From Escherichia coli (lineage in GTDB: Bacteria > Pseudomonadota > Gammaproteobacteria > Enterobacterales > Enterobacteriaceae), in the NCBI GenBank assembly GCA_025336685.1, contig GCA_025336685.1_4717.1: DNA of 64,000 bases. The stretch is one strand, 5' to 3'. Shown piece by piece: positions 26,304-59,660 of this stretch. How positions within the stretch are numbered: position 1 is the first letter of the stretch; the number at the start of each line of letters is the position of its first letter. The notes under the pieces are model-generated. The model had not been told where the DNA came from and did not search any database. It saw only the letters and a program-made list of their open reading frames with translations. A program made the position numbers and the translations under genes.

Positions 26304-27878
26304 TTACAATTCAAAATCTTCATCGATAACGCGCTGGGTAAGCACTTTGTCGCTGAAGAACTCCACCTTGCGCTGATGGTATTTACGATGCGCTTCGATA
26401 GAAGTACATACCAGATACCAGAAGGTTGGCGTCATTCCTTCAAACTTCCCTTTCAGCTGACGCAGTCGCCCCAACACCTGAATGTTACCGGTTCGTGACC
26501 CCATCGCTAACGTCATGAACGCCATCACCAAGTCAGGAAGGTCGATGCCCGTACCTGCCGATTTCACCGTCGTAACGCTAATATCGTTATCCAACAAGAC
26601 CATGAAATCTTCTTCAGCCGTATAAGGACCGATCTCTAACTCAGGAATACGTTCACTGAGATAATGCGACAACGACTTACACATATCAACGGTTGCACAA
26701 TACACCAGCATCTTCATACCTTCCTGATACTGGTTCATGAAACCTTTGATGATAACCGTATAGATAAAGTTGAAATACGCGAGTTTGAGCTGCTTGTTCT
26801 TCATGATAGACTGTTCGAATATCGTGTGAGAATAAGAACCCCCAAACCCTTTGTATCTGACTTTATCTGTACTACGTAGTCGATACGTCACGGCATTTAC
26901 CGCAATGTATTTCTTGTATTCGCCTTTCGCATAACGGGCTTCTTTCGGATACATCAAATACAACATCCGCTCGATGAACGGATCATCGGACACCGCCGTT
27001 GCTGACAGATAGATGATTTCCGGAATACTAGCGTAACACTTGACCTTAAACAAGAAATGCAATGCTTCATGGCACTCGTCATGAATCAGAAGGCCTATGC
27101 CGGTCTTTTCCCAAAACTCAGCGGGATGAAAGGCATACGGCGCAACGCAGTTATTCTTCTCGTAGTCCGCAATATAACGTTGGAACATGTTCAAGGAGAA
27201 CAATGCGATTTTGAAGTCGAGTTCACCTTGTTCAACCAAGGTTTGAAACTCCAACATACTGTAACGAGGAATGTCGGGATGCGGTGGATCCTCCTTAGCG
27301 TTCCCGCGTATCTCGATAACGTCCCCTGGTTCCATCCCGAAGAAGTTCAGCAGTGAGCTTCGCCAACCTGGCATGTATCTCGGCGACAGAATGATACCCG
27401 TCCGTACACCGCGTCGGAAGGTAATCTCCTGCGACATGGCCGTTTTTCCCGACCCTGTTTGAGCGGTGTTTAGACTCATTCTGAAGGGGGTATCCTTACC
27501 CCCATTCATGTACTCCAACCATTCTTGCTGATCTTCACGCCATGGGAACTTCCATTTCTTTACGAACTCCACTTCTTTACCTGGTGCCGGATCGTGATAA
27601 ACGATTTCCAACCACTCTTTTCGTATCCCTCGGGAAAAGATAAAATCCAAAAACGATTTCAACTGTTCGCGGAGTAAGTATACCTCGCTATAATCGCTTC
27701 TCGCTGCGGCATACGTGTTTATGGTATCGGTAACCATTCTCCGTGTACGAGGGTCGCGCCGTTTCCTCAGATGCAAACAACGGTCTCGAAGGTAATGGCC
27801 GATAAGATGGGCAAATCGAAGTCCGTATCCGCTCAGCTTCATGCCATGCGAGAAGACGTCGATACGAGCTAACTTCAT
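26304..27878 (-). CDS. SF2 DExH-box helicase
   Basis: Walker A TGSGKT, motif II LIHDECHE; ATGA overlap with upstream stop. Confidence 0.7.
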   Translation of the reverse strand: MKLARIDVFSHGMKLSGYGLRFAHLIGHYLRDRCLHLRKRRDPRTRRMVTDTINTYAAARSDYSEVYLLREQLKSFLDFIFSRGIRKEWLEIVYHDPAPGKEVEFVKKWKFPWREDQQEWLEYMNGGKDTPFRMSLNTAQTGSGKTAMSQEITFRRGVRTGIILSPRYMPGWRSSLLNFFGMEPGDVIEIRGNAKEDPPHPDIPRYSMLEFQTLVEQGELDFKIALFSLNMFQRYIADYEKNNCVAPYAFHPAEFWEKTGIGLLIHDECHEALHFLFKVKCYASIPEIIYLSATAVSDDPFIERMLYLMYPKEARYAKGEYKKYIAVNAVTYRLRSTDKVRYKGFGGSYSHTIFEQSIMKNKQLKLAYFNFIYTVIIKGFMNQYQEGMKMLVYCATVDMCKSLSHYLSERIPELEIGPYTAEEDFMVLLDNDISVTTVKSAGTGIDLPDLVMAFMTLAMGSRTGNIQVLGRLRQLKGKFEGMTPTFWYLVCTSIEAHRKYHQRKVEFFSDKVLTQRVIDEDFEL

Positions 27879-29881
27879 AACGTGAATACATCCTCCGGTT
27901 TAGGTTCTTTGCGCGGTAAAAGCATGTAGTCGATCGGATGATCCGGCTTCATGGTTGGGATATAACTGTTCGGGTTTTGGAACGCATCCAGCTGCTCTTG
28001 GTGAGCGAACTTCATACTCAAGGAGCGCATGTTCATGTTCTTCTTGAAGGTACTGAAGTATCGTGTTGTTCCCTGTTTCGGCATGCGATAATCTTTCGTG
28101 TGTGGTGAACGAATCATGCTAGCGTAGAGAATAACATCGAGATGCGAAAGGTTCATTCGCAGACGCTGGGCACACAGGCGATGCCAATAGTACAGCACGT
28201 TTGCAACTTCTTCCGGTGTAGCTTCGTCTTCCGAGAGGAATCCGGCACTGAAAGAACCTTTCCCGAATTTGAACTCACGTTCGATTTCTTTTGCGTACTC
28301 CATCATGTTTTTGTGGATTAACGGCATCTGGAATAACGTACGTGAATTGTCCCAGTGTTTCAAGTCGAAAATCACAATCCCGTCAGACGTCACTTCCCAG
28401 CTATGGCGTTTAAGATAACGGATAAACGCTTTACTCGGTACAACAGGACGTCCGCAGAAATCGAAATTGACTTTGAGCTTACGATAGCTTTCATCTTTCC
28501 TGTCGTAAATCTCCATATCGCAAAGCGTCATGTTAAACAGACGCTGTGGTATCAGCGAACTGATTTCTTCCGCTTCAGCTACATCGTACAACATGTTCGC
28601 AAGACCTAACTTCATCTTAATCAACACGTGTTTACCTTTCAGCTCACGTGCGAGTTTGATGTCGTTCATGTTCTGGCTGTAGCGAAGGATATGTTGATAT
28701 TCCGGTGGGATTGGTGCTGTGGATACCGTTGACGAACCATCGTGGTGTTTGGTAGAAAGAATGTTCTGCGTTACCTGTTGCGAGCAGGTACGTGCTGCAC
28801 CATCACCGACATTATCAGTCAATGCGAAGTTATGGCTCAATTCACCATAACACGTCGTGCATACCCCAGCAGGATCGGGATGATGACAATAGTTAACGGA
28901 GCGCATGCGTACCGTCGTGCCGATCAATTCTTTCATGTGTGGTTGTATCGCTACCAACGAACCGTCATCACGAATAATGAATCGACCGTGGAAGCCGCGT
29001 AGGTCGGTCTCATCACGGATTGGCATCGGGATGGCCTCTCTACTACCACAATCACCAGGATGTAGTCGTTGCACAACCGCTGTCGCTATCTGAAGTTCGC
29101 GACCGAAATATTCGGACTTTTTAATCTGCTCTTTGTTGAACAGCAGCGATTTCGCCGCAGAACGACTTTCTTTCAAGCTGTCAGGAAGAGAGATCAAACC
29201 GGCTGCATACGACCGCATTACCGGATCGCGGAATATCTCGGAGTTAATATCGGTCAAGAATCCACGCATCCCAATACACTGTAGCACCTGCCCAATCGAA
29301 ACGTGTTCGGTTCTTACCGCACGTGCGATAGGGTTTGCATGTAACGTTTTATCGGTGCTCAGTACCTTTGTCAATTTCTTGTATGCGCTTTCGATACCTT
29401 CGCGGGTGGGTTCCGCTTCAGCGATGATTTTCTTAACTTCAGGGTGTACAGTAATCTGATAAAAATCGTCCGCACAAATAGTTGTTACGTATTCCTCCAA
29501 CGCATACGTAAAGAAGTTATACACATTGTTAAACATATCGAACAATGCTTTCCAGAGAACCTCACGATTCTCTTGTGGGTAAGCATACATGCATTGACGA
29601 TACGCTGCGCTTTGCAACGCAACCGACGAACCAGCAGTAAACTTGCGTTTATCCACCAGGTTCTCTTTTGTCAATGGTGTCTCAGGATACATGCGATGCA
29701 CAGACCAGTGCATGTAACTAAAGAAAATGCGTCGTGCGCGCAATTCATGAACGCCATCGTCCATCTCGATATATACACGGTCGTTAGGCTGTGCCCACTC
29801 GAATACCTCATCAACCGGCCAGTGCATAAGCTCGCGTGCCCTCACACGACGTTTCGTGGTGGTCGTCTGTGTTGTAGTCAT
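27875..29881 (-). CDS. multisubunit RNA polymerase beta-prime-like subunit, C-terminal module
   Basis: CTTCYGELSHNFALTDNVGDGAARTCSQQVTQNILSTKHHDGSS parallels bacterial beta-prime CxxCYG...GxAIGxIAAQSIGEPGTQLTMRTFHxGG. Confidence 0.65.
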   Translation of the reverse strand: MTTTQTTTTKRRVRARELMHWPVDEVFEWAQPNDRVYIEMDDGVHELRARRIFFSYMHWSVHRMYPETPLTKENLVDKRKFTAGSSVALQSAAYRQCMYAYPQENREVLWKALFDMFNNVYNFFTYALEEYVTTICADDFYQITVHPEVKKIIAEAEPTREGIESAYKKLTKVLSTDKTLHANPIARAVRTEHVSIGQVLQCIGMRGFLTDINSEIFRDPVMRSYAAGLISLPDSLKESRSAAKSLLFNKEQIKKSEYFGRELQIATAVVQRLHPGDCGSREAIPMPIRDETDLRGFHGRFIIRDDGSLVAIQPHMKELIGTTVRMRSVNYCHHPDPAGVCTTCYGELSHNFALTDNVGDGAARTCSQQVTQNILSTKHHDGSSTVSTAPIPPEYQHILRYSQNMNDIKLARELKGKHVLIKMKLGLANMLYDVAEAEEISSLIPQRLFNMTLCDMEIYDRKDESYRKLKVNFDFCGRPVVPSKAFIRYLKRHSWEVTSDGIVIFDLKHWDNSRTLFQMPLIHKNMMEYAKEIEREFKFGKGSFSAGFLSEDEATPEEVANVLYYWHRLCAQRLRMNLSHLDVILYASMIRSPHTKDYRMPKQGTTRYFSTFKKNMNMRSLSMKFAHQEQLDAFQNPNSYIPTMKPDHPIDYMLLPRKEPKPEDVFTL

Positions 29882-31958: not shown

Positions 31959-34127
31959 CTAGCTTTCGCAGTCATCTGCGTCGATGATTTGTCCACCGGC
32001 AACGTTCAGTTGATGATACAGAATCCTCAACGCACGGTTACCACCAATGGGATACTTCTCGAAGTTGGTCGCAATAGGAATCGCTGACGGCTTATCGGTC
32101 GCATAGATGCTTTCAGTGATGCTATCCACCTGTTTTGGATTGTTTGCATAGTCCATAAAGACGCTCGCAAACCACCCACCAGCAAAGGCGGTAACTTCGC
32201 GATGTTCAGATTCACCACAGTAACGAGTTGGTTGCTCTTTACCAGGAGAACTGTACTTATCGCTATTACTGAGTTTCGACGGTAATCCGTGCGCTTGCAG
32301 TTTAGGAATACCCACCGCTGACCAATCGTTCGCCGTCTTCTCCAACATCATGATGTACGTGTCACCGATCGCAATATCGTTCTTGGTTGTCCGCCACTGC
32401 CCAGAACGTCCGCGGTACCGTACAGGACCTTTCTTCAACGGGAACTCACGAATCAGATTCTCCATACGTTCTGAACCCGCTGCGATACTGTCTGTCGGGA
32501 TATAAACTTCCGTACCGTGGCGTTGTACGTACCGTAAATGATCCCATTTATCCTCATCCGTGATACAGTATTTTTCAACAACCTGTTCCACGAACTCAGG
32601 ACTGACGATATAGTAGTAGCGCATCAGTGTGTTCCAAGCGGTCTCCAGATCGCCTGCATCCATCACTGGTTTCAGCTCACGCATGATCTGGTCACCAACA
32701 CCGTTGATGTATGGCGCATTAACACGACTTAAACTCATCCTTTTGATTACCGTGCTATCGTCAAACATAAAGTCCGCAACGTTACCCCATTGGTCAACCG
32801 GCATTTCATCGTCTTCCATGATGTCGGTTACGACGAATTTATCACCCGCCATACCCGTGAATTTAAACCCGATACCTGGAACAACGTCATACGTGTACGT
32901 GATGGTCACACGCCAATCATCGAGATTCTCTTTACGGTAATCGCGGGTTGGTAATACATGACGTAGCTGTCCGTTAGGATTGCGGATATCAATACCGTGT
33001 TCAGCATCAGCCAGGTTCAACCACCACATCACCGTTTGATGATGACGTATCGGCGTACCAACGCGTTCACGTTCGTACTTACGAACAGCATCCTGAATTC
33101 GGGTGTAAAGCAAACCGATTGCGTTTTCATATTTCAGGAATTGACGATACGGAGGACGCATCTTCTCTTCCATCATAATCGCACGCTCGCGGGCTTGACG
33201 TCCAGAACGACGATGTCGATCGCTGACAACATCGATATCCGTTACACGCGCATTCGGTTCAGCGTAAGTGAGATCATCGTAAACATAATCCACGCGCTGA
33301 AGGTTACACGTCATCATGTCAACAACGCTGAGGATAGGATCTATTTCGCGTGTTGCTGCAAGCAACCCATCCTTACGAATGCGCTCACCGTTCTCGGGTA
33401 TTGCTTGGTATACTTCGTCATCACCGTAGAGATTGATTGGGTATCGCGATTTACCTGATGTAATTGTTCGCTTCTCAATACCAGTACTGGTGAAATGCTT
33501 CAATACACCGCGACGGGCAACGCCACCATCTTCAATACACTGGTAGAAGCTACCGAAACACACCTTGCAATCGCGACCGTAACCCCACTCACGTGTTTCT
33601 TGATTGATCGCTGGGCTTTCCATCAAACGAGAATATCGTGGTACGATCTGGCCTCGACGAAGGGAATGGAACAAGTTGGTTGGTCGAAAACGGAAACCGT
33701 ACTGCTGATGCATGATGTGATGCTCGGGCACTTCAAGCAAGCGTAGCTCGTGACGGTTACCATCCTCTTGGTTTTCATACAGCACGTAATGCATCGTGTT
33801 TGTTTTGATGCTGTTTGCTGTATGCCCTGGTTGAAACCGCGGAATGATATCTATGATGCGAGATTCAACTGGAAACTCTACTGACCAAGTGTTTTGTCCG
33901 TACTGGTATTCAATCCCCGTCGTTAGTCGGGACGGCTTCGCATCTTTGATAACCAACGCTTGGCTAAGATGTCCACCAAACATCGCAGCGCGCTGTGCTG
34001 AGTTATAATGCAATAGCCCGTTAAGTCCAGTCCCTACGCCAGTATACTCCTGTTTAATGGGAATGATTTTACCTTCAGCGATTGCCTGCTTCACAGATTC
34101 ATAAAGAGGTTTTTCTTTATAATGCAT
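31959..34127 (-). CDS. multisubunit RNA polymerase beta-like subunit, C-terminal module
   Basis: GDKFVVTDIMEDDEMPVDQWGNVADFMFDDSTVIKRMSLSR parallels beta GDKxAGRHGNKGV..EDMP..G.P.D..LNPLGVPSRMN; GESEHREVTAFAGGW parallels GEMEVWALEAYGA; ATG 34127 (MHYKEKPLY) with AGGAAG RBS instead of track start 34292. Confidence 0.65.
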   Translation of the reverse strand: MHYKEKPLYESVKQAIAEGKIIPIKQEYTGVGTGLNGLLHYNSAQRAAMFGGHLSQALVIKDAKPSRLTTGIEYQYGQNTWSVEFPVESRIIDIIPRFQPGHTANSIKTNTMHYVLYENQEDGNRHELRLLEVPEHHIMHQQYGFRFRPTNLFHSLRRGQIVPRYSRLMESPAINQETREWGYGRDCKVCFGSFYQCIEDGGVARRGVLKHFTSTGIEKRTITSGKSRYPINLYGDDEVYQAIPENGERIRKDGLLAATREIDPILSVVDMMTCNLQRVDYVYDDLTYAEPNARVTDIDVVSDRHRRSGRQARERAIMMEEKMRPPYRQFLKYENAIGLLYTRIQDAVRKYERERVGTPIRHHQTVMWWLNLADAEHGIDIRNPNGQLRHVLPTRDYRKENLDDWRVTITYTYDVVPGIGFKFTGMAGDKFVVTDIMEDDEMPVDQWGNVADFMFDDSTVIKRMSLSRVNAPYINGVGDQIMRELKPVMDAGDLETAWNTLMRYYYIVSPEFVEQVVEKYCITDEDKWDHLRYVQRHGTEVYIPTDSIAAGSERMENLIREFPLKKGPVRYRGRSGQWRTTKNDIAIGDTYIMMLEKTANDWSAVGIPKLQAHGLPSKLSNSDKYSSPGKEQPTRYCGESEHREVTAFAGGWFASVFMDYANNPKQVDSITESIYATDKPSAIPIATNFEKYPIGGNRALRILYHQLNVAGGQIIDADDCES

Positions 34128-34577: not shown

Positions 34578-35858
34578 TCAGAAACGATTTACAGTACGTC
34601 CTGTCCATGCACTCAGGATGTTGTTACGTTCCATCTCAGCCCGACGACGTAAGCCGTTTGGTGACTGCGGTGCTTGCGGCATCCCCCACCCAGCAGGCTG
34701 CATACCCATACCAGGCCAAGCGGAATTATTGAACATCGTACCGTTACGTTCCGCAACACGATTCATTAATGTATCAAACGTGCTATTACCTGCCGGTTGA
34801 TTACCGCCGCTTTCCCATTGATTAGGTTGAACAGGTGTAGTTTTACCCAACAGGTTATCAATCACGTTACTCGTTGCAGCAGGACGCGGTTGCATGCCTT
34901 CATGTGCAGCTGCTGATGGATTTGGCTTAACCGTCGGCTGCGGACGACTGTTCAGCGTTACACCCATGTTGTATTTCGCTGGTGGAATCTGACCACGATG
35001 TTGGGTAATCGGCTCAAAATCCTCGACCCAGGTAACATCGCAATAACCGTTCTCTTTACCGTCGTACTTATCACCAAACAGTTTGATAAGATTGTTCAGC
35101 GGTTCCATCAGCTTCGCGAAGCTGTGGATAAGACAATCGAAATACGGAGCATGAGGATCGCTTGACCCAGCATTATACGTTTCACTTACCTCACCGGAGT
35201 GAGGGATAACGTACTCAACCAGGTTTCTCAGCATGTTAAGATCTTTCTTGGAAATCTCAACACCACACCAGTACGTTTTCTTATCTTTCGTGCTGATGTG
35301 TTCCTCTTCCATGAACGGGAAAGTAACTACCGCAACGCGGGTCATCTTCTTACCCATGTAGGTTGCGCCAGTACGACGAAGATAAATTTTAGACAACGTA
35401 TACGGTGTGTCACGTTTCAACCAAACGGTGACCAGTTTACCTAACGTCGTTAGCGTTTTATCGCTGGCATCCGCAAGGATATTGAAGAACTCTTTTTGCT
35501 TCGGTCCGAAACGTTTTGCTTCTTTAGGATTGATTGCGGTTTCAACCATCCAAATCAGCATGGAACACAGTGTGGCGTTAAAACGAACAACCATTGCACG
35601 ACGCAGGAACTGAAGTACTTCCGATTCACCATTCATCACGTCTTCACTTAGCGGATGGAACAGTACACGTTCGGCGAGTTGATTTCCGGTACGAACTTCG
35701 GGAACCGGCATCAGCAACGGCATGCTTTCCACGGTAGCGGCAACTGCAACAACTTTACCATCCCCATCTGTAAAACGATATTCTAATTCGTGGGCGTCAT
35801 TTTCAAAATAGTTAACGCTTTGCAGCGCTTTGCGATAAGCTTCAATAAGCTTCGACAT
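34578..35858 (-). CDS. hypothetical protein with Q/P/G/M/N-rich low-complexity C-terminal region
   Basis: 426-aa ORF, RBS AAGGAAA; C-terminal ~120 aa low complexity. Confidence 0.5.
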   Translation of the reverse strand: MSKLIEAYRKALQSVNYFENDAHELEYRFTDGDGKVVAVAATVESMPLLMPVPEVRTGNQLAERVLFHPLSEDVMNGESEVLQFLRRAMVVRFNATLCSMLIWMVETAINPKEAKRFGPKQKEFFNILADASDKTLTTLGKLVTVWLKRDTPYTLSKIYLRRTGATYMGKKMTRVAVVTFPFMEEEHISTKDKKTYWCGVEISKKDLNMLRNLVEYVIPHSGEVSETYNAGSSDPHAPYFDCLIHSFAKLMEPLNNLIKLFGDKYDGKENGYCDVTWVEDFEPITQHRGQIPPAKYNMGVTLNSRPQPTVKPNPSAAAHEGMQPRPAATSNVIDNLLGKTTPVQPNQWESGGNQPAGNSTFDTLMNRVAERNGTMFNNSAWPGMGMQPAGWGMPQAPQSPNGLRRRAEMERNNILSAWTGRTVNRF

Positions 35859-35887
35859 ATTGCGTTTCCTTTTCTTTTACGTCAACG

Positions 35888-35906
35888 GTCCCCTACAACA
35901 GGGGAC
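35888..35906 (-). terminator. hairpin GTCCCCT-ACAAC-AGGGGAC
   Basis: 7-bp perfect stem just downstream of the 35914 stop; no U-tract. Confidence 0.35.
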
Positions 35907-35913
35907 CTATGGA

Positions 35914-37500
35914 TTAGAAGTTGCCTTTGGTAGTTACCGCATCCACCAGGTTAAACAAATCAACACTCAGCTTGTAAACCTCCTGCTGACTACGGTTGAG
36001 CAGCGGGCTGTACGCGGATGGGTTGATGTTCGGCATGGTGTACGGAATCGGTGAAGAGCCGTCAACGCTGATCTTGAACTGGCTGTCCAGGAACAGGTTA
36101 ATCGCACCACTCACCATAACCGCGTTCGGGTTGTTACCCAACATGGAGGGCAGGATATTGGTAATCATGTCGGAACGCATCTGTTCAGCAGCGCGGTTAC
36201 AATCATACCCTTTAATGAACGGTACAGCGTCAGTAACCGCAACCGCCCATTGCCCAGGCATGATGCCTAGTTCTGGATGGCCGTGGTTATCAGCAATGAA
36301 ACGGAACGACTCCAACATGCGATACGTCATCGCAGCAGGCATCATCGCAGCAAGTGATGAACAATACAGCGTTGGATAATCGATAACGTCCCAGCTCTGG
36401 CTATCGGTCGGCATCCAACCAAACTCGGTGGTTGCCGATGTACCGCGACGAGCTTCCACGTACGGGAACAGTCTTAAGACATCACGGACATGCTCGCCGA
36501 ACATCCGTTTCATATCAGCCCAACTCAGGCTACCGCTGAAGGCGAATCCCTCATCACGCATAATCGCACCGAATACCGGATGCGCAACCAACGGTTCTTC
36601 ACGAACAGCTTGAGCTGCTTCTACGTAAATATCCTCATTCTCTGCGCTACCTGGATGAGACCCGCTTTCGTACGTCTGACGAATAGCCCCGACGTTATCG
36701 AAGGCTTTTCTTAGATAGATGGTTGGGATGTTCGTATCAGCACTCGCTGGTTTGATTTTCTCCGTTGCGAAACACATTGCTGCTTCCACACCACGAAAAA
36801 CCGGTTCCGGTTGCGATTGATAGGAAGAGCGATGAACCACATCAGCGTAGGCTGGATCGAACTGCTGCATCACGTTCTGCATGGCTGGGTCCATGAACTG
36901 GTTATCAAAACCACCATTGCCTACCCAACGTGCAGTCGACGCATAAGTCAGCGTATCCTGAACACGAGTACTGAACTGAACATCACGATTAACAGGGTCG
37001 TATGCGCCAGTCAAAAGGTTCGTTGCGTCCATCGGGGTCGCGCGAACGATTTGCTTACCGAACATATCCGTTGTGGTTGTTTCGGTTACCTGGATTACAT
37101 TCGTGAAGAAGAACACCAGTTCGTTCGGCAGATCGATGGCACGTGTTGTAAACGCATCGAGGCTTACCGAATGGTCGGTGTATCCAGAAATGTAATGGAC
37201 GCGCTTGGTTCCTGGTGCAAGGGCCAAGGATTCTTCCACAGCCATCATGAAATGGAAACGACGTGTGCCCCAACCATTCGCAATCTCCGAAACCCCCTCA
37301 GGTTCTGCAGACTGCTGTAACAAACCGGTTGCAAGCTTATTGATTGCTGATGGGGTTGTTGCCGTACCGAACTTCGTCGTGTTAATAAAGTCTTCGATGC
37401 TACGCATGCTATCTGCATGGAATCGTAGTGGACGACGTTGTACGTTGTTGTACGGTGCGGTTTCAACCATCAGTATTTCACGAACATTCATCGGGATCAT
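35914..37500 (-). CDS. hypothetical 528-aa protein
   Basis: Long ORF, no recognised motif. Confidence 0.5.
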   Translation of the reverse strand: MIPMNVREILMVETAPYNNVQRRPLRFHADSMRSIEDFINTTKFGTATTPSAINKLATGLLQQSAEPEGVSEIANGWGTRRFHFMMAVEESLALAPGTKRVHYISGYTDHSVSLDAFTTRAIDLPNELVFFFTNVIQVTETTTTDMFGKQIVRATPMDATNLLTGAYDPVNRDVQFSTRVQDTLTYASTARWVGNGGFDNQFMDPAMQNVMQQFDPAYADVVHRSSYQSQPEPVFRGVEAAMCFATEKIKPASADTNIPTIYLRKAFDNVGAIRQTYESGSHPGSAENEDIYVEAAQAVREEPLVAHPVFGAIMRDEGFAFSGSLSWADMKRMFGEHVRDVLRLFPYVEARRGTSATTEFGWMPTDSQSWDVIDYPTLYCSSLAAMMPAAMTYRMLESFRFIADNHGHPELGIMPGQWAVAVTDAVPFIKGYDCNRAAEQMRSDMITNILPSMLGNNPNAVMVSGAINLFLDSQFKISVDGSSPIPYTMPNINPSAYSPLLNRSQQEVYKLSVDLFNLVDAVTTKGNF

Positions 37501-37501
37501 T

Positions 37502-39088
37502 TTATTTTTTTCCTCTTAAATTTACTACATGTTCATTTAATCGAACAACTAATTGCACAAGCTGCTGACGGATATCTGCTGGGCAAAGCATCAATCCTTT
37601 ACGATCAGCTGGGACTTTCTCAAGGATTTCCGGACCTGCTGCGGAAACATCCCAATCCCATTCACAAAACGCATCAGCCACCATGTTAATACCGACAACC
37701 GGTAAAGTTGTACGTTCATCTTCATACATGGCATGCGGATACAATTTATTGACGGTAATGACCTCCTGTGGTTTTAACTGATGGATAATCTGGTAAACGT
37801 CGTCGCGTTTAACCTGGATACCTACGGTCAGCGCAGCCAGTTGAGGAAAACCCCAATGGTCTAATAAGCACGCTGCGATTGCTAACGCTTTTGCCTGATG
37901 TACGGCTTCAATCGGTGATAGACTTCTCGCTGGAAGATGACTATCAAGCAACCATTGTGCCAATGCTCGGCATCCACGGTTGATTGGTTTTAACTCAATG
38001 CTGTCATCATGTTTAGCGTAGGTGTATCCGTCGTAACGTTTTGCGATACGCGCATACATGTCTTCAACTTTACCGTAAGGTGCTGTTTCGTCGACGTCAT
38101 GCAACACCCGTTCCATCTGGGTAAGATACGCGATATCAAGGATGAGTACGCGTGGTGAACGTTTATCTTTCACCATCAACGCATCAATCACGCCTTGACT
38201 GTCTTCATCTTGCGCATTCCCTCGCGGCGTTTTCTCGCGAATCGGTCCGCTGAAACGTCGTTCCGTACAAAGGTTATTCACATAGCTAAAGATCAACGTT
38301 ACCAGGTGCGTACAACTCACCAACACTCCATCTTTAACGACAGGCTGTACGGCTTGGTCCAAATCGCGTACTGCGAGACGGCGAACGATGGCTTGTGAAC
38401 GCAACCAACCAGGTACTTTCTCTGTCGACATGTAATCCACCGTCATCGACAGCGTGATCTTTTTATCGCCTGTCTGTGCACGGATATAATCTTCCAGTCG
38501 GTCGTAAGCAGCGATATCATGAATGCGTGTTTTATACATCAACGACATAGCCACTTCTTCTTTACGTACCGTCCCGTACGTTTTCCCTGCGTCAATCAGA
38601 AACTCCGCCCAAATCGGCACCATCAGCCGGACGTAGATCGCTAACGCCGTTAACTCAACGTAATCGTTTCGTAAATAGGTTTTCTCAGGTATGTCATCCT
38701 CACCTAATGTTGTTTTCATGTCTGGCGGTAATTTTACCCAACCTGGGGTATTACACAACGCCAGAATCTCTTCATAGACGATCGGTTTGTAAATTTCACC
38801 GACGGCGCGGCTCAACTCCTCCATTTGTTGCTGTGGAGCAATGTAGTTATCCATCGCTTCACGTGCTTTAACGAACCCTTCGAAGATGTCGTCGATTCGA
38901 CGTGGGTTCTTTTGTTCTATCCAAGCGAGATACTTATTAATCTCTCGCATCTGATTGCTAGCCATATCCCCATCAATCTTGATGTAGCCTTGGCCTGAAA
39001 ATTCCACGGCACGTCCGTCACGATGTTTGATGAGATAGTGATCCAGCTTTTCTTTGCCTTGCGTCGTAATGACGGGCACAATGTGCAT
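37502..39088 (-). CDS. hypothetical 528-aa protein
   Basis: Long ORF preceded by a 240-nt structured leader with promoter-like motif. Confidence 0.5.
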   Translation of the reverse strand: MHIVPVITTQGKEKLDHYLIKHRDGRAVEFSGQGYIKIDGDMASNQMREINKYLAWIEQKNPRRIDDIFEGFVKAREAMDNYIAPQQQMEELSRAVGEIYKPIVYEEILALCNTPGWVKLPPDMKTTLGEDDIPEKTYLRNDYVELTALAIYVRLMVPIWAEFLIDAGKTYGTVRKEEVAMSLMYKTRIHDIAAYDRLEDYIRAQTGDKKITLSMTVDYMSTEKVPGWLRSQAIVRRLAVRDLDQAVQPVVKDGVLVSCTHLVTLIFSYVNNLCTERRFSGPIREKTPRGNAQDEDSQGVIDALMVKDKRSPRVLILDIAYLTQMERVLHDVDETAPYGKVEDMYARIAKRYDGYTYAKHDDSIELKPINRGCRALAQWLLDSHLPARSLSPIEAVHQAKALAIAACLLDHWGFPQLAALTVGIQVKRDDVYQIIHQLKPQEVITVNKLYPHAMYEDERTTLPVVGINMVADAFCEWDWDVSAAGPEILEKVPADRKGLMLCPADIRQQLVQLVVRLNEHVVNLRGKK

Positions 39089-47669: not shown

Positions 47670-48925
47670 AAGTCGGCATTGTATCCCTTAAGGATCATCA
47701 CGCTTAACCCGATGGTGTTATCCTGCGGATCGCGTTTAACCTTGGTGATTTCAAGACATTGGTTACTGCTTCGGTCAAGTGATGGGTTTCGAACAAAACC
47801 ACACACAATCCCATCGAACGGTGTATCGGCAATAAGCTCATCGTGTAGCTCGCTCATCATCGGGTGGTAATTACGGACATGTTCCGCAACGAACGCACGT
47901 GCTGCTCTTGGTGAATAACCACGATGGAATAACTTGGATTGGATGTGTTCTTTATTGGTTAATGTAAATGGCGCGTATGGGAAATGCAGATGATAATAAC
48001 GATGGTTCGCTGTTATCGAACTGATTACGGTACGCGTGGTGAATGGGTGTAATGTACCTAATATGTTTTTACGCGTGATACCTTTCTTCTTACCGATGAA
48101 CTCATCGAAAATCGCCGAGTGGTACTGCAGCAGCTTCAGTTGTACTTTCGCCATCCAGTTTTCTTTCTTTCTGGCGCTCAAAGGTGTTGTTGGGTGATAG
48201 ATACTATTCAATGTGCCGATAGCATCGATCGCACCTTCCATTTTGCTATCTGCATAACGGCCGGTCGGTGTATTTTCGATAACGAACATCATGGCCGCAG
48301 GAAAGCTGATATACTGGCTGAAGAACTTATCACGATGGATACGGATGAATTCTCGTAGCGTGTCAACTTTCTCTGTGTTCTTCGGTCCACGTAACGTAGG
48401 TCCTTTATACAAGATCTCCATGATGCGATCGAAGTTCTGTATAAAGCTATTTACGCCACGTCGTATCCCGAATACATCGAATTGCTGCTCCAGATAGTTC
48501 TTGAGTTCGATGGGTCGTTTTACATTTGGACGGTAACTGGCATCAATGAGCCACGTCATCGTTTCGAAGCTTTTGATATTCAACTCGCTTGCCAGCACGA
48601 GATGGACCAACGGGTTAATGAACGCATCGATTCCTTCAGGGACACGCGCCCAGACCGTCGAACGAATCTCCTGTTCTGCTGGGTAGGTCACAACCGTTTT
48701 ACAGTTTGGACACACCGTGCCGAGCAGCTCACCACGATTGTAAAAACCGCATCCACATTGCGGTGTGATATCCAACGTATCGCTGGAGTAAACACGGGTG
48801 ATAAAACTGTTTAATTTCTTCTTCTCTTCGACGACTTTTGTATCGTAATCGTTCAACAAAATCGGCGTAAAGGGAAGTTCTGCGAGCTGTCTATCGAAAC
48901 TCACGATATCGAGCATGATGGCCAT
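47670..48925 (-). CDS. RNA polymerase beta-prime-like N-terminal subunit, exon 1
   Basis: Zinc-ribbon CGCGFYNRGELLGTVCPNCK; C-terminal ...IGLSVMILKGYNADF parallels bacterial ...LHPLVCAAYNADF; the ORF reads through into the intron as SFFN-stop. Confidence 0.8.
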
Positions 48926-49017: not shown

Positions 49018-50913
49018 TTAGAACAGGTTGAATGCCCCACCCATGTTGTTACCGCCAACATTCGGACGATCGCTACGTGCATAGATGTTGCCGGAGATGT
49101 TACCCAGACCACGAGCACGTGCTGCTGTGTTACCACGAACAGCGGTACCTGCCAGATGCTGGATGTTCTCAGGACGGATGGTGAAGCCAGCTTCGGCAGC
49201 CGCTTCAATCAATGCCGCAAGCGCATTCGGTTCGAAATCGTAACGCATTGCCCAACCGGTTTGTTCCCAGCTACCAGACAGAACGCGATCGATGATTTCG
49301 TGACGAGCAACAACACGCTGAGACATCGACATATCGGTACGGTCGAAGCTGTCTTCCCAAGCTTCTACGGTATCCGGGTTAGTGATGTTCATCATGTACA
49401 GATCGTCCATATCACGAATATCGTGACGGTGGCCATCCTGGTGGTTGTAGTGACCCAGCGGGATACGGTTACCGGTAGCGTACACTAACGGCTGGCCGTA
49501 TTGATATTTCTTGCTGAAGCAACCCAGGGTGGTATCATCGAATGCACGATAGAGTGCTTTATAGCCTTCGGAGATTTCTTGAACTTTACCGTCAACGTTG
49601 CCCGTAAAGATCTTCTCAGCTGCAGGGATCATACGCAGCAACCAGCTATATTCACCTTCTTCCGGTACATCGATAGAAATCAGCAGAGACGGATACAGTA
49701 CCTGTTGCAGGAACTTGTAAATCTGCTCGTTGGTTTGAGTAGACAGATCCAGCGGTGCGGTAACTTCCGGATCCAGTACCATTGCCAGAGCACCCGGGTT
49801 ATGAGGACCGATGCCACGAGCAGCGTTGCTGATTAAAGACTGTGCCCACGCCATACCGCTGTTCAGCGTAGCGATGGTACCAATCAGACCTAACACGAAA
49901 GTGTTCGGAGTGAACGCATCCAGCTCCAGCGGGTAAGCGCTGGTCATCACGTAACGCGGCTGGTATTGTACAGTCGGCGGTACCGGATAACCGTTAACCA
50001 GAACAGGACCTTGGTTGAAGGTCGGGTTCTGCGGGCTGTAGGTCAGGTCAATGTAACCAGTGGTTGCGACCAGGCGCTGTTGACTATCGTAATCGCTCAT
50101 CGCTTGACGGATACGGTTAGAGATAGTTACAGTGATGTCAGAACGTACTGGGTTACCGACGATATCGCTGTCCTGCATACCGCTGGTGTTGTACTGAACG
50201 CTGCTGATCGGCTGATCGCTTGCCATCATGCCCAGGTTGAACTGCGGCAGGCCCAGTTTATCGCCGAGACGGATTTCGATCGCGGTTTGGATTGCGTTAT
50301 CTGCAGCAGACAACAGGGTGGTTGCCAGATGTGCAGATTCAGCGGTGATTTCATTGGTCACCACAGCCAGACCGGCGATACGAACAGTACCATTAGCCTT
50401 ACCACCAATAGCCGCATACATTGCCGCCATGACTTCGTTGATGAACGTGCCGTTCAGGTTATCAACCCAGGTACGTGGTACCAGAATGTTACCATGCGGA
50501 CCTTGTTCTTCACGACGCGGCAGCGGAGCCAAACCGGCAACCAGCGGAAGCACATAACCGAAGAAGTGGTTATGGTCACCAACTTTTGCACCGCTCATAA
50601 CAACCAGGGTCGGATACGGTACACTGTACTGGTTAGGATCGACGGTCACCATGATGAAGTCGTCTTTGAATCCTTTATCTTCCAGTTCTTTTTCCATCAG
50701 ACGGCGGAGATTCAGTACCTGCTCGGAGCCAGTATTACGGCTAATACGACGGCTCAGTGTACGGTTGATCGTACGCATCGTATGAGTTACTTTAGGCTGG
50801 CCAGCAAAATCTGCAGCGGTTTCCAGCGCCTCATCAGCACGTTGTGCGGTGCGGGTTTCAGCTGCACGAATTTCTACATTATCGTTACCGTTATTACGTA
50901 CGTCTAAGCCCAT
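49018..50913 (-). CDS. 631-aa protein, candidate nuclear-shell protein (chimallin-like); function inferred only from size, promoter and position
   Basis: Long ORF with AGAGGAA RBS, promoter-like motif upstream, immediately upstream of the beta-prime-like gene; I recall a similar arrangement in phiKZ. Confidence 0.45.
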   Translation of the reverse strand: MGLDVRNNGNDNVEIRAAETRTAQRADEALETAADFAGQPKVTHTMRTINRTLSRRISRNTGSEQVLNLRRLMEKELEDKGFKDDFIMVTVDPNQYSVPYPTLVVMSGAKVGDHNHFFGYVLPLVAGLAPLPRREEQGPHGNILVPRTWVDNLNGTFINEVMAAMYAAIGGKANGTVRIAGLAVVTNEITAESAHLATTLLSAADNAIQTAIEIRLGDKLGLPQFNLGMMASDQPISSVQYNTSGMQDSDIVGNPVRSDITVTISNRIRQAMSDYDSQQRLVATTGYIDLTYSPQNPTFNQGPVLVNGYPVPPTVQYQPRYVMTSAYPLELDAFTPNTFVLGLIGTIATLNSGMAWAQSLISNAARGIGPHNPGALAMVLDPEVTAPLDLSTQTNEQIYKFLQQVLYPSLLISIDVPEEGEYSWLLRMIPAAEKIFTGNVDGKVQEISEGYKALYRAFDDTTLGCFSKKYQYGQPLVYATGNRIPLGHYNHQDGHRHDIRDMDDLYMMNITNPDTVEAWEDSFDRTDMSMSQRVVARHEIIDRVLSGSWEQTGWAMRYDFEPNALAALIEAAAEAGFTIRPENIQHLAGTAVRGNTAARARGLGNISGNIYARSDRPNVGGNNMGGAFNLF

Positions 50914-50976: not shown

Positions 50977-51010
50977 TTCACCTAGGTAATATAACCCTGA
51001 AATTTTTTTC
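50977..51010 (-). promoter_or_regulatory. conserved promoter-like motif (TATATTAC core), copy 4
   Basis: Plus strand TTCACCTAGGTAATATAACCCTGAAATTTTTTTC, ~65-95 nt upstream of start 50913. Confidence 0.5.
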
Positions 51011-52328: not shown

Positions 52329-54482
52329 TTATTCTGCGGTTTCTTGCTTCGGTAAATAACTTGCTGCGATGTCTTGGGCCAACAATGTATTGTTTTTATT
52401 CGAGATGAAAATACCGTAACTTTCCATTAACGCATAATACGAACGAACGAGCGTAGAGATCAGTCGACGAATATCCATACCTTGAATAAAGATATCAGGA
52501 AGCCCGGAGGCTTCGATCACCGGTAATGGTATCGTTAAGTTGCTTATCGTTTTCTTATCGTTACGTACAATCCAATCACGGAAACGTTGTTGTAACCCTT
52601 TATCCTCCCATGAATCAATCCAATCATTAAGAAGCGTTTTGTTCTTCGTCGCCAGCGGTACACGAACCCCAACATAAGGCGGTTCAGAGCAATGGCCGTA
52701 CGATTGAGCAAACACCTCTTCCCACATATCGTAAGACTGTTTCGTTACTGCAACATGTGGTTTCACTTTAACACGTGTTAAGAAATCGGGGTCACCTCGT
52801 TTCATTGACTCAACGATTTCGTTTTCTAACGAGATGATATCATCAAGAACCAATCGAATACTGATCTTCTCGTTACGTAACAGCTTATCCATGATACCAC
52901 ACATCATCCGCTCAACACGTTGGACGATCATCTTCGGCGCTGATGCGTCGCGCATAACAGGGCCTTTCAATTCCAGCTTCGGTGGATTGATAGGAACCCC
53001 TTCACGCATGGTCATGTATCCGTAATAGTTTTTACCCATCGAGGTTAACGACAGGATTAAGAACATATATTCGTTCTTCATCTCCATTACGTACATATGC
53101 TCTTTCGCTACACCGATATTACCAGAACACATCGCCATCAGATGAACCGTAATCTGCGTAACCAGATAGATAAGCGTGTTTGCTAAGCGCGTCGAAATTG
53201 GATTGATCTCCATATTTCCAAATCGCCACTGAACCCACTCCTGGCAGGTAAACACCGTCGAGTCGGTATCAGACAACACACCCACTTCACGGATTGCCGA
53301 CGGAAAAGCATAAACGCCTGCCGGTTGGTTCTCGGTACGCCATAACGCCTTAATTAAATCAGCGTAGCTTTGGATGCGTTGCAGCATTAATTTTGTCGTT
53401 GCTGCAGTAAGACGATAACCGAGTTCATTTCCTTTTTCTAGCGCTACGTAAATCGCTTCCCCGTTCAAGAACTCCGTGCATTGTGCTGTAATCCAAGCTA
53501 CCGTGTTGTTATCCATGGAAGCAATAATGGCTTTAGCCTCTTCCATCGTTTCAACAGGTTCGGATGCCAGTTCACATAACGAGTCAAGAAAATCTCGAAC
53601 AAATTCAGGATTAAGCTCACGTAACGAGTACAGGTTATTGCTGTACATGTAGCAGGCACGTTCCAACGGCGTTAAACCGGTAATTAGCTCCCGGATGGTC
53701 AGCTCTTTCTCTGGGTCGAAAGTATACCGATGTAAGCATTTCGATACGTTAGCCCAAACCTCTTCCGGCGTAGGGTAATGCAGTTTGTATTTTACCATTA
53801 CCTGCTCAATGGCTTTACGATCGCTGTTACGGACAATACTCACGATGTTTTCAATTGCGATATCACAATCGTAATAATGGAAATTACCCGCAAGGAAGCG
53901 TTCGTTGTTCGCATTGGCTGAACCTGAAGCACAGCGACATGTTGTCGTTAGACTCGGATGCGCGATCGGATTGTAAAATGGGTTAAACTTGGACGCTTGG
54001 GTTCCTGACAAGCTGTTGTTATCTAACTTGGTGTTGGTTTGTCGTTTATCGTGTAACTCAGCTTCGTCTTTACGTCCGTGAGCTTGCGCTATCGACATTT
54101 GTTTCTTCTGTTTCTTACGCAACTTACCGTTTTCAACCGCAAAGTCGCTTAGCACACTGGAACGTGTTTCACGTGGATAACAGTTAGCCCATACCGGCGT
54201 GATAATTAAATTATTTTCTTTAATATCGTTGAAGTATTGGCTGAACTTGATGACTTCTTTTTCTCGGTTTCCTTCAGTACGCTGTGTTAGTACAAGGCAG
54301 TCGGGATCAACCATCCCGTATTTTCCACCAGGACTAACCGTATCAAGAACAAACTGCAACGCTTCCTGCTGAGAAATCCCACGCATGCGCATTAAGAACA
54401 GGGTATAATCCTGTACCGCTTCTTTGGTCATATCCAACGTACGGCCATATCCGTTTTCATCGTAAAAGAACGGATTTTCCAT
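52329..54482 (-). CDS. hypothetical 717-aa protein
   Basis: Long ORF, GGAGG RBS; no confident motif. Confidence 0.55.
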   Translation of the reverse strand: MENPFFYDENGYGRTLDMTKEAVQDYTLFLMRMRGISQQEALQFVLDTVSPGGKYGMVDPDCLVLTQRTEGNREKEVIKFSQYFNDIKENNLIITPVWANCYPRETRSSVLSDFAVENGKLRKKQKKQMSIAQAHGRKDEAELHDKRQTNTKLDNNSLSGTQASKFNPFYNPIAHPSLTTTCRCASGSANANNERFLAGNFHYYDCDIAIENIVSIVRNSDRKAIEQVMVKYKLHYPTPEEVWANVSKCLHRYTFDPEKELTIRELITGLTPLERACYMYSNNLYSLRELNPEFVRDFLDSLCELASEPVETMEEAKAIIASMDNNTVAWITAQCTEFLNGEAIYVALEKGNELGYRLTAATTKLMLQRIQSYADLIKALWRTENQPAGVYAFPSAIREVGVLSDTDSTVFTCQEWVQWRFGNMEINPISTRLANTLIYLVTQITVHLMAMCSGNIGVAKEHMYVMEMKNEYMFLILSLTSMGKNYYGYMTMREGVPINPPKLELKGPVMRDASAPKMIVQRVERMMCGIMDKLLRNEKISIRLVLDDIISLENEIVESMKRGDPDFLTRVKVKPHVAVTKQSYDMWEEVFAQSYGHCSEPPYVGVRVPLATKNKTLLNDWIDSWEDKGLQQRFRDWIVRNDKKTISNLTIPLPVIEASGLPDIFIQGMDIRRLISTLVRSYYALMESYGIFISNKNNTLLAQDIAASYLPKQETAE

Positions 54483-58434: not shown

Positions 58435-58443
58435 CGATAGAAC

Positions 58444-58644: not shown

Positions 58645-58826
58645 AGCGCATCTCCATTCACTTGAACTTTTTGGTTCGGTGTTAGAAAAGCAAGAAACCG
58701 CTGTTCTTCGCTTCCGCTACAGTTTCGTCACCAACTTTCGGTGCCTGTTGACGCGCGTTACGATGTTCGATGTAACGTTTCGCTTCGTCAGCGATTTGTT
58801 TGATAATACCCTAAACGATCCAGTAC

Positions 58827-59660
58827 TTAAAACAAACGACGTCGCTTCTGAATCAGGCTGCTTTCAGGTACAAAACCGTCACAGCTGTAAATAGCGTTAA
58901 CACCCATGACTTTAGTCGCGTCTTTCGGATAAAGCGTACAGAAAGCAATAGGACTATCGTTCTCTTTCGTCCAATCGTATCCCACGAACGTATTCAGTTC
59001 GGTGATCGTTGGTTCCAAACCGGTAACACGTGGATGGTTTAAGAAGTTTTCCAGGTCGGCGCTGTCAAGACGACGGTTCTCACCAGAAAACAGAACACAA
59101 AGCTGGCTAATAACAACCTGCACGTCCAGGTTGACATCCTGCTCCGATTTCCCATTTTCGCCATTCATGTGATAGCTAACAATCACCGGACGTTTCAATC
59201 CTTCTGCAGCTGCCATCAGTCCTTTAAAGGTACGATCGGCGTTGATCGTTTGACGCTCATCATCGAACGAGGCAACGATGCAACACACCACACGTTCACC
59301 GCGTTCCAGCAGGTTAGCAACCAACGCAGGACCTGCAACAGAACCTGAACCACCGCTCAGACTAAAGACCACGATATTAAATTTACCAGGCGTATGCTTA
59401 TTGAGAATGCCTGGGATTTGTGAACAGATCAGTTCAGCGTTCTCATCACGCTTCTTACCAGAACCGTCTAACTCACGACCCGCCGCATCTTTAAAGATGT
59501 AGATATGATCGTCGTCCAGTGCGCTATCGCGTAGGTTAGCCCGGCTGGTATCAACATACGTCATGCTGTGTAATCCTTTCGCGACTTCGCCTTCAAACGC
59601 TGAGCCGATTTCGCCACCACAACCACCAACAGCCCAAATATGTACTTGGTTCTCTTGCAT
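58827..59660 (-). CDS. phuZ: PhuZ-like phage tubulin
   Basis: IWAVGGCGGEIG (tubulin/FtsZ N-terminal G-box) and FSLSGGSGSVAGP (GGGTGSG-type loop); block order matches PhuZ as I recall it; 277 aa, apparently lacking a C-terminal tail. Confidence 0.75.
   Translation of the reverse strand: MQENQVHIWAVGGCGGEIGSAFEGEVAKGLHSMTYVDTSRANLRDSALDDDHIYIFKDAAGRELDGSGKKRDENAELICSQIPGILNKHTPGKFNIVVFSLSGGSGSVAGPALVANLLERGERVVCCIVASFDDERQTINADRTFKGLMAAAEGLKRPVIVSYHMNGENGKSEQDVNLDVQVVISQLCVLFSGENRRLDSADLENFLNHPRVTGLEPTITELNTFVGYDWTKENDSPIAFCTLYPKDATKVMGVNAIYSCDGFVPESSLIQKRRRLF

Follow-up and report, generated by a model that had tools for sequence, protein, structure and literature searches.

The window examined here, a 64-kb stretch of DNA, carries between positions 26304 and 54482 a block of genes colinear with gp50-gp75 of phage phiKZ, with 17 colinear orthologue pairs. 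Read along the minus strand, the order is DNA polymerase, chimallin, beta-prime N of the non-virion RNA polymerase (nvRNAP), an SbcD-like nuclease, ChmC, a gp68-like nvRNAP subunit, two homologues of shell-associated proteins, nvRNAP beta C, nvRNAP beta-prime C and a helicase. A tubulin gene lies beyond the block. The features are as follows.

52329..54482, minus strand: divergent family B DNA polymerase (phiKZ gp50 homologue), upstream end of the block (PF20286, 678 bits; phmmer against gp50, 6.3e-128)
50986..51002, minus strand: promoter-like motif TTTCAGGGTTATATTAC upstream of chmA, putative early (virion-RNAP) promoter (motif searches)
49018..50913, minus strand: chmA, 631-aa ORF (PF25677, PDB 7SQT, Goslar gp246)
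47670..48925, minus strand: nvRNAP beta-prime N exon 1, ending ...NADF with U47670 as last base (phmmer against phiKZ gp55, 7OGP_A, 4.1e-62)
46258..47669, minus strand: group I intron, 1412 nt (Rfam RF00028, 47281-47660)
46265..47227, minus strand: intron-encoded HNH homing endonuclease, 320 aa (Pfam HNH_3, 25.7 bits; PHROG 59, 5.7e-29)
46020..46257, minus strand: nvRNAP beta-prime N exon 2, DGDAMNNH... to stop (97% identical to Goslar gp185)
39331..40119, minus strand: chmC, nucleus-associated RNA-binding protein, 262 aa (98.5% identical to Goslar gp176; phmmer against phiKZ gp67, 5.2e-25)
39184-39200: promoter-like motif ATTCACGCTTATATTAC of the gp68-like subunit gene (motif search)
37502..39088, minus strand: fifth, phage-specific nvRNAP subunit (phiKZ gp68 homologue), 528 aa (PDB 7OGP_B / 9RJS_B, PHIKZ068, 2.4e-28, residues 23-518)
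34578..37500, minus strand: two genes, homologues of phiKZ gp70 (34578-35858; phmmer 1.1e-24) and gp69 (35914-37500; phmmer 1.8e-19)
31959..34127, minus strand: nvRNAP beta C-terminal subunit, 722 aa, uninterrupted (PDB 7OGP_C, phiKZ gp71/73, 6.1e-86)
27875..29881, minus strand: nvRNAP beta-prime C-terminal subunit, 668 aa (PDB 7OGP_D, phiKZ gp74, 1.1e-86)
26304..27878, minus strand: SF2 helicase (phiKZ gp75 homologue), downstream end of the block (phmmer against gp75, 3.9e-52; 97.3% identical to Goslar gp164)
58682..59660, minus strand: phuZ tubulin gene; open frame 58827-59660 of 277 aa, last 42 codons (58685-58810) in another frame
58808..58855, minus strand: private lesion cluster in phuZ, three indels (-1, +1, -2) and two substitutions within 48 nt

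The whole window is 92-96% identical at the DNA level to Escherichia phage Goslar (vB_EcoM_Goslar, Goslarvirus goslar, NC_048170 / MK327938), with genes colinear and gene order and content matching throughout, and 98-99% identical to many contigs of ~236 kb in public assemblies. It differs from Goslar in that its thymidylate synthase gene contains an additional intron carrying an I-TevI-like endonuclease, in the N-terminal half of exonuclease gp147, and in a 188-nt deletion in gp236. The ~236-kb contigs with an identical ChmA protein come from bacterial isolate assemblies and metagenomes (BAPS), and 237 Goslarvirus genomes in 38 species are reported in PMC12768965; GCA_039902845.1 and ERZ27241609, for example, share 98-99% DNA identity with window positions 39182-60910. 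None of the fetched Goslarvirus loci was identical to the window. We are thus highly confident that the window is part of a Goslarvirus genome (Chimalliviridae, jumbo phages of enterobacteria) and that the interval flagged earlier is the replication and transcription block conserved among chimalliviruses; none of the analyses of the window contradicted this reading. The earlier sequence-only reading had proposed the gene set of a phiKZ-like, nucleus-forming jumbo phage, and its assignments hold; its five features were recovered at the same positions, all on the minus strand. The system is already known, and as a close relative of a well-studied E. coli jumbo phage this one is ordinary.

In phiKZ the counterparts are gp54 (chimallin), gp55, gp68, gp71/73 and gp74 (nvRNAP) and gp67 (ChmC). 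Protein identity between the two blocks is low; the chimallins of Goslar and 201phi2-1, at ~21% identity, exemplify such divergence across systems (PMC9891218). The 631-aa protein had been assigned to chimallin from size and synteny only, with failure to resemble the ChmA family named beforehand as the refuting outcome. It matches the Pfam chimallin model PF25677 at 97.6 bits (cutoff 27) and the Goslar chimallin structure 7SQT at E=0 (1384 bits), and is 96.7% identical to Goslar ChmA (gp246), with 21 substitutions and no gaps. On this sequence evidence it is ChmA, and the exact sequence is present in at least 57 blocks of public assemblies. The chmC gene corresponds to Goslar gp176, identified as ChmC (bioRxiv 10.1101/2023.09.22.559000). 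By cluster position, the genes at 34578-35858 and 35914-37500 would correspond to the shell-associated PhiPA3 proteins gp64 and gp63; their products fall in PHROGs 3520 and 3141, both without known function. The chmC gene and these two homologues had been overlooked earlier.

The beta and beta-prime C-terminal polypeptides recognised from sequence are confirmed as orthologues of phiKZ gp71/73 and gp74. The beta C subunit aligns to E. coli beta 1063-1241 and is 100% identical to Goslar gp171 (the 722-aa reading at 31959-34127 follows the Goslar annotation, the mechanical ORF extending to 34292); its gene is uninterrupted, unlike the intron-interrupted phiKZ gp71/73. The beta-prime C subunit is 99.4% identical to Goslar gp165, with weak NCBIfam rpoC matches to its C-terminal half. 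The gp68-like subunit (phmmer against gp68, 4.5e-32) is 98.7% identical to its Goslar counterpart; it too had escaped notice. Four of the five nvRNAP subunits are thus encoded in the window, where the RNAP set is incomplete: these 64 kb contain neither the phiKZ gp123-like beta N-terminal subunit nor any virion-RNAP subunit. Virion and non-virion RNAPs are both built of split beta and beta-prime homologues, and as the PDB matches included no virion-RNAP chain, a paralogue could match nvRNAP chains by default. That the pieces are instead the virion-packaged enzyme is nevertheless very improbable, given full-length matches to phiKZ nvRNAP chains (E 1e-62 to 1e-86), the presence of the nvRNAP-specific gp68 homologue, and a gene order exactly that of the phiKZ nvRNAP cluster gp54-gp75, outside which the phiKZ virion-RNAP gene gp80 lies. 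By homology, each of the RNAP pieces is part of the non-virion enzyme, a point absent from the earlier reading.

The beta-prime N-terminal polypeptide was likewise correctly identified, as a phiKZ gp55 orthologue, but at 46020..48925 the coding sequence is interrupted: the interval consists of two exons and an intron that takes up 1412 of the 2906 nt. Exon 1 is 99.8% identical to Goslar gp247. The unspliced ORF from 48925 stops at 47654 after 423 aa, reading NADFSFFN* without DFDGD. The ribozyme core spans ~47281-47669, with the internal guide sequence at 47613-47624 and the terminal G at 46258; the RF00028 match (50.3 bits, E 8e-10) is barely over the gathering threshold of 50. In P1, CCGACUU pairs with GAGUCGG, placing a U.G pair at the splice site, and in P10 CGAUG pairs with CAUCG and covaries in Goslar (CGACG/CGUCG) and in the close relative L003. 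An allele that lacks an intron at this position (L006) reads straight through the site as GATTTCGACGGGGACGCAATGAAC. The beta-prime N mRNA would thus have to self-splice a group I intron within the catalytic NADF|DGD codons, and only splicing is predicted to restore NADFDGD. The predicted spliced protein has 497 aa with DFDGD at 418-422, compared with 417-421 in phiKZ gp55 (PMC8287921).

Goslar has the same intron core at the same site. Its intron endonuclease, gp186, is only 29% identical to that of the window, and blastn finds no counterpart in Goslar for the 1050-nt cassette at 46247-47296; an HNH endonuclease identical to the window's occurs at the same place in eight metagenome contigs. 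Behind the DGDA codons Goslar also has a second insertion, devoid of ORFs (L001 ~21262-21620; weak group I match, 16.7 bits), that is missing from the window, and the closest relatives, L003 and L004, differ from the window in carrying this second intron too and in having no endonuclease in the first. Homing with co-conversion probably brought the cassette in and probably also removed the neighbouring intron carried by Goslar and the closest relatives. In phiKZ, beta-prime N is similarly interrupted by a group I intron and HNH endonuclease next to the NADFDGD codons, although there the intron lies ~8 nt upstream (N|ADFDGD) and the endonuclease ORF precedes the ribozyme core, whereas in the window it follows.

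A promoter-like motif upstream of the 631-aa gene, also proposed from sequence, was upheld. Five exact matches to TATATTAC occur in the window, all on the minus strand and all within the intergenic 7.8% of the sequence, and the 17-mer TTTCAsGGyTATATTAC has four matches against 0.39 expected, again in intergenic DNA only. The copy upstream of chmA, TTTCAGGGTTATATTAC, is oriented with the gene, and phiKZ shares the core: there TATATTAC precedes gp54 (chimallin) and gp68, and the sequence upstream of it is similarly A/T-rich and contains TTT. The motif is real and is a putative early promoter, in agreement with the early-promoter description in PMC7598289.

The tubulin ORF is of PhuZ type, as had been claimed, but the complete phuZ gene encodes 326 aa, of which this ORF covers the N-terminal portion. 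It matches PDB entries 9PM9 (1.7e-179), phiKZ gp39 (3ZBP, 1.3e-28) and PhuZ201 (2.5e-14), and no family besides PhuZ was matched among the structures; a fit to a different family had been put forward as a possible refutation. The GGSGS signature at 103 and D202 are present, and the Pfam Tubulin score (30.7) is below the cutoff of 33. As sequenced, PhuZ would lack the C-terminal tail needed by its filaments (the tail codons 58685-58810 being defined by the Goslar PhuZ reading), and the tubulin part of the hallmark set in this genome may have lost its function, or there may be a sequence error at this point.

We consider it somewhat probable that the frameshift arose as a local error of sequencing or assembly, the phage itself having a normal PhuZ of 326 aa. 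The changes lie close together, are private and fall partly in a homopolymer (GGGGG -> GGG), in otherwise clean surroundings; the lesion is absent from all aligned relatives, 16/16 of which encode the 326-aa protein, and a 277-aa product is not on record anywhere. Moreover, the 42 tail codons are, in their displaced frame, 100% identical in protein to Goslar, so that a loss, if real, must be very recent. Against an artefact, two of the three indels lie outside homopolymer runs, these are the sole private indels in 13.2 kb, and phuZ is the sole frameshifted gene in the 64-kb window among ~87 mapped from Goslar; the assembly is thus not generally indel-prone, and an error-prone one should show more. 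These points favour a naturally PhuZ-defective Goslarvirus, in which a complex mutation (the five changes, with a frame-0 stop at 58827) truncates the protein at residue 277, losing helix H11 and the tail. The tail is required for polymerisation (PMC7950403), and PhuZ is non-essential and missing in 24% of chimalliviruses (PMC11724907). We regard such a truncation as possible but doubtful.

The nucleus, chimallin and PhuZ vortex of Goslar have been demonstrated experimentally (PMC9891218, PMC9365700), and its ChmC is described in 10.1101/2023.09.22.559000. The steps below are established for Goslar and phiKZ, and we infer them here from near-identity. Injected virion RNAP would transcribe early operons, including chmA and the nvRNAP genes, from TATATTAC-type promoters. 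ChmA would self-assemble into a lattice shell enclosing the replicating phage DNA, the five-subunit nvRNAP would perform later transcription, ChmC would handle mRNA at the shell, and PhuZ filaments would rotate the nucleus. If the PhuZ truncation is true, there would be no cytoskeletal vortex, and the phage would still replicate, with a non-rotating nucleus. The intron endonuclease has a parallel in PhiPA3 gp210 (PMC11620839), likewise an HNH endonuclease in a group I intron at a conserved site of a jumbo-phage RNAP subunit gene, although that intron interrupts a Pseudomonas phage gene for virion RNAP, and the one here lies in non-virion beta-prime N and its endonuclease is predicted from sequence. 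PhiPA3 gp210 provides a precedent for intron endonucleases in competition between co-infecting chimalliviruses (PMC11620839).

The window is a member of the genus Goslarvirus: its identity to Escherichia phage vB_EcoM_Goslar (Goslar, whose proteins are meant by gp numbers unless another phage is named), the many near-identical public loci and a published survey together place it in a known, well-sampled genus. Goslar was the sole phage found when three large window segments were searched by megablast against 50,697 phage records, with DNA identity of 93-96% over 85-96% of each queried segment, also given as 92-96% over 87-96%. In a direct alignment, window positions 24951-64000 follow Goslar 146601-186180 colinearly apart from three breaks, and about 87 Goslar proteins map in order onto the window. 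An exact copy of the window chimallin (ChmA) protein was found in 57 or more public-assembly blocks, which include contigs of about 236 kb from NCBI bacterial isolate assemblies and from metagenomes; the DNA of these loci is 98-99% identical to the window. Exact-protein look-ups recorded ChmA, the HNH protein described below and gp233 in many contigs, none of them identical to the window. Bacterial isolate assemblies contain whole Goslarvirus genomes, ~236 kb in length, as contigs (L004-L008, L018, L021 and L023, all NCBI GCA_ records), a phenomenon named bacterial assembly-associated phage sequences in a survey that raised Goslarvirus from 1 to 237 genomes in bacterial assemblies (PMC12768965).

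The sequence-only reading was correct in recognising a jumbo phage that forms a nucleus, and its interpretation is supported here; all the ORFs it named exist, on the minus strand. The Goslar-type system is already known in detail and the novelty of this main reading is nil. No new biology is added because the Goslar chimallin, PhuZ, ChmC and RNA polymerase (RNAP) genes have already been characterised, both structurally and in cells, and public Goslarvirus genomes number in the hundreds.

Several smaller differences from Goslar were seen. A 219-aa ORF (5856-6515, minus strand) between the gp134 and gp135 homologues is without a Goslar counterpart and without a Pfam or PHROG match. The window encodes a 441-aa gp147-like 3'-5' exoribonuclease (13274-14599, minus strand) in which only the C-terminal half, with an Rv2179c-like domain, is common to Goslar gp147, the N-terminal ~230 residues being unrelated. 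At window ~58334, 188 nt of Goslar sequence (L001 33720-33907) are deleted, and with them most of the small gene gp236, a gene missing or variable in several relatives too. The thymidylate synthase gene (8814-10937, minus strand) is split by a 1107-nt insertion (9108-10214) that Goslar is without. The insertion carries an I-TevI-like endonuclease ORF (9240-10094) with GIY-YIG, NUMOD3 and I-TevI DNA-binding domains. At the exon junction (CQLYQR/SADVFLG, the slash marking the insertion) U precedes the insertion and G stands at its end; close to its 3' end is a GAUAUAGUC element. An Rfam search of the insertion gave no match even at E<=1; judged from its exon junctions, endonuclease family and GAUAUAGUC element only, it resembles a group I intron of the td type.

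The 631-aa protein had been proposed as chimallin, the nuclear-shell protein, from size and synteny only, and this assignment is now firm. The profile search detected the ChmA family (Pfam PF25677) at 97.6 bits (cutoff 27) over residues 20-595 of 631, and the Goslar chimallin structure 7SQT was matched at E=0 over residues 1-631; weaker matches were PhiPA3 PhuN (3.9e-21) and 201phi2-1 chimallin (9.6e-12). Window and Goslar ChmA are 96.7% identical, with 21 of 631 positions different and zero gaps, so that the N- and C-terminal segments of the window protein are at full length. Goslar ChmA builds a protein shell around phage DNA in infection, as seen by GFP fusion and cryo-ET (PMC9891218, PMC9365700), and from its near-identity the window ChmA would be expected to assemble in the same way.

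The promoter-like motif claimed upstream of the 631-aa gene is present, as TTTCAGGGTTATATTAC at 50986-51002. Within the window TATATTAC occurs five times, always on the minus strand and always in intergenic DNA, which makes up 7.8% of the sequence. The sites are at 50986, 44461, 39184, 31527 and 21145; the genes that they precede are chmA, the gp68-like gene, gp182, gp159 and gp169. Allowing up to 3 mismatches, the 17-mer promoter-like motif has 4 matches (0.39 expected). A direct sequence scan of phiKZ found TATATTAC ahead of gp54 (chimallin) and gp68, in a similar A/T-rich upstream context (aaaTTTGAGAT[C/T]TATATTAC); a full-text literature search for TATATTAC returned irrelevant papers only. 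Jumbo phages have conserved AT-rich early promoters read by the virion RNAP (PMC7598289), and the TATATTAC motif fits these, probably serving as a promoter. Expression is not explained by host-type promoters, because a sigma-70 scan of the window found sites not above chance, and in fact below the expected count (20 against 26.8 +/- 5).

The RNAP genes and their neighbours were assigned as follows.

Genes of the non-virion RNAP (nvRNAP) cluster in the window, with the matches on which they were named
27875-29881, minus strand: beta-prime C, phiKZ gp74 chain of 7OGP (1.1e-86)
31959-34127, minus strand: beta C part, phiKZ gp71/73 chain of 7OGP (6.1e-86), aligning to E. coli beta 1063-1241
34578-35858 and 35914-37500, minus strand: phiKZ gp70 and gp69 homologues, respectively (phmmer against phiKZ)
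37502-39088, minus strand: fifth, sigma-like nvRNAP subunit, PHIKZ068 (gp68), full length (2.4e-28)
39331-40119, minus strand: ChmC, a nucleus-associated RNA-binding protein, 98.5% identical to Goslar gp176 (= ChmC)
47654-48925, minus strand: beta-prime N (exon 1 ORF), phiKZ gp55 chain of 7OGP (4.1e-62)

The labels beta C, beta-prime C and beta-prime N given to three ORFs in the sequence-only reading thus hold against the 7OGP chains, and the part that fails is beta-prime N as one uninterrupted gene, which is intron-split. Absent from that account were the non-virion membership of all three ORFs, the gp68-like protein as a fourth nvRNAP subunit of the block, ChmC, and the phiKZ gp69 and gp70 homologues. 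Seventeen colinear orthologue pairs (phmmer) between window 26304-54482 and phiKZ gp50-gp75 settle the RNAP genes as non-virion, and a virion-RNAP identity was rejected on this synteny and on the gp68 homologue. In phiKZ, gp68 is the fifth, sigma-like nvRNAP subunit, required for assembly and promoter binding (PMC8287921). Three of the four split beta/beta-prime subunits (the gp55, gp74 and gp71/73 types) are present. A gp123-like beta N subunit was not found in the window, where every unassigned ORF is too small, and it is expected elsewhere in the genome. The ORFs at 35914-37500 and 34578-35858 (400-530 aa) were considered as further RNAP subunits and rejected, being homologues of phiKZ gp69 and gp70 with no PDB match. 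Neither the window nor Goslar has an interruption in beta C. The phiKZ orthologue gp71/73 (23276-26596 in L026, the phiKZ sequence) is divided by an intron that carries gp72 and scores strongly as group I (87.6 bits).

The beta-prime N gene has a textbook-like arrangement, and is a gene split by a putative self-splicing group I intron. The reading frame opened at 48925 ends in ...NADFSFFN, with its stop at 47654, and the catalytic DFDGD is missing when the transcript is unspliced. Rfam RF00028 matches 47281-47660 over the full model (1-253) with E 8e-10, at 50.3 bits a marginal pass of the gathering score of 50. The intron occupies 46258-47669 (1412 nt); the 5' exon ends at U47670 (...GCCGACUU) and the intron closes with G46258. 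At 47613-47624 is the guide sequence 5'-CAUCG-GAGUCGG-3'. Its GAGUCGG pairs with the 5' exon CCGACUU to form P1, in which the splice-site pair is U.G, and its CAUCG pairs with the 3' exon start CGAUG to form P10. Goslar and the relative L003 show a compensatory change in P10, the exon having CGACG(G) and the guide (C)CGUCG. The predicted ligated exon junction is ...AAUGCCGACUU/CGAUGGGGACGCG. In L006, a relative that lacks an intron here, the frame reads through as ...GCAGATTTCGACGGGGACGCAATGAAC (NADFDGDAMN; sequence AATGCAGATTTCGACGGGGACGCAATGAAC), and the L006-type allele lacking the intron is GATTTCGACGGGGAC. Splicing would give a beta-prime N of 497 aa with DFDGD at 418-422, the DxDGD loop being found in the spliced product only; phiKZ gp55 has DFDGD at 417-421 (PMC8287921). 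An intein and a true stop-split of the gene were both rejected, given the stop codon after exon 1 and an unspliced product without DFDGD. An ORF for a 320-aa HNH endonuclease (46265-47227) follows the ribozyme core and precedes the 3' splice site. RefSeq gives beta-prime N as two separate CDSs, and this annotation should become one spliced 497-aa product.

The intron and its endonuclease vary among close relatives at three Goslarvirus sites.

Goslarvirus intron sites in the beta-prime N gene (a slash marks the intron position)
Site A: GGGU/AUAAU
Site B: GACUU/CGAY
Site C: GCU/AUGAAC

The 1050-nt cassette at 46247-47296 has zero DNA similarity to Goslar, and the window intron endonuclease is only 29% identical to Goslar gp186. 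The window's own endonuclease stands at the same position in eight metagenome contigs, and the closest relatives (L003, L004 and L008) have a 377-nt endonuclease-free intron there. Intron B exists in three forms, with no endonuclease, with the Goslar-type HNH gene or with the window-type HNH gene. At site C, 15 nt past the first intron, a second, ORF-less insertion of ~355 nt is found in Goslar, L003, L004, L005, L007 and L008 and is missing from the window. In Goslar (L001 ~21262-21620) its match to the group I model is weak (16.7 bits, E 0.28), and RefSeq does not annotate it. The mini-exon between the first intron and this insertion (about 12-15 nt) encodes DGDA. L006 and L007 have another ORF-less insertion at site A, 13 nt upstream (~13230-13610), which yields a 449-aa read-through ORF call. 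The phiKZ intron falls between these sites (AAUG/CUGAU), which makes four intron positions, three in Goslarvirus and one in phiKZ, within ~30 nt around the NADFDGD codons.

The window is a mosaic at this locus. In its flanks it resembles L003 and L004 at 99%, two relatives with the endonuclease-free intron B together with intron C; its endonuclease cassette is 99% like L014 and L015, lineages that are otherwise 94-97% identical. This combination points to a lateral transfer in which the cassette moved by homing with co-conversion. The HNH cassette would have arrived by homing, the mini-exon would have been co-converted and the neighbouring downstream intron C would have been erased. On balance we lean towards the ~30 nt of the catalytic NADFDGD loop being a mobile-intron hot spot of Goslarvirus, with the window cassette derived from recent homing.

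The tubulin ORF is of the PhuZ type, as had been claimed, and matches 9PM9 (1.7e-179), phiKZ PhuZ gp39 (3ZBP, 1.3e-28) and PhuZ201 (2.5e-14). GGSGS at 103-107 and the catalytic aspartate D202 are kept. The Pfam Tubulin score of 30.7 bits is below the cutoff of 33, and is likewise weak in intact relatives. As sequenced, PhuZ is broken in this genome: the frame at 58827..59660 stops at residue 277, and Goslar PhuZ has 326 aa. Helix H11 and the C-terminal tail are not part of this product, the tail codons (GIIKQIADE...GFLLF) lying in another frame. Three indels (-1, +1, -2) and two substitutions fall within 58808-58855; the last 42 phuZ codons continue in another frame and encode protein 100% identical to Goslar. 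At the lesion the unbroken frame would read ...CCGATTCGTGAAGCG...TACCGATCGTTTAGGGGGTATT.

A local assembly error or similar artefact is the somewhat likelier source of this frameshift, and accounts for the same data at least as well as a real loss would. All 16 relatives examined have the 326-aa PhuZ, and an exact-protein look-up found no record of the 277-aa product. Compared with 10-14 relatives over 13.2 kb, the lesion holds the window's only private indels, and the density of private changes there is ~70 times background. A real, recent truncation is biologically plausible and is held more tentatively. The PhuZ C-terminal tail contacts the next subunit and is required for filament polymerisation (PMC7950403); PhuZ itself is dispensable, and a quarter of chimalliviruses lack it (PMC11724907). 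A possible natural truncation of the PhuZ tail is a second small lead.

The intron turnover is the only part worth follow-up, and is a variation on a known theme. Endonucleases in introns of chimallivirus RNAP genes, and their role in phage competition, have already been described (PMC11620839, PMC12908238). By analogy with PhiPA3 gp210, competing intron endonucleases could serve co-infecting Goslarviruses as weapons against each other. The variation in introns and endonucleases at the RNAP active site among near-identical phages is a ready system for intron competition.
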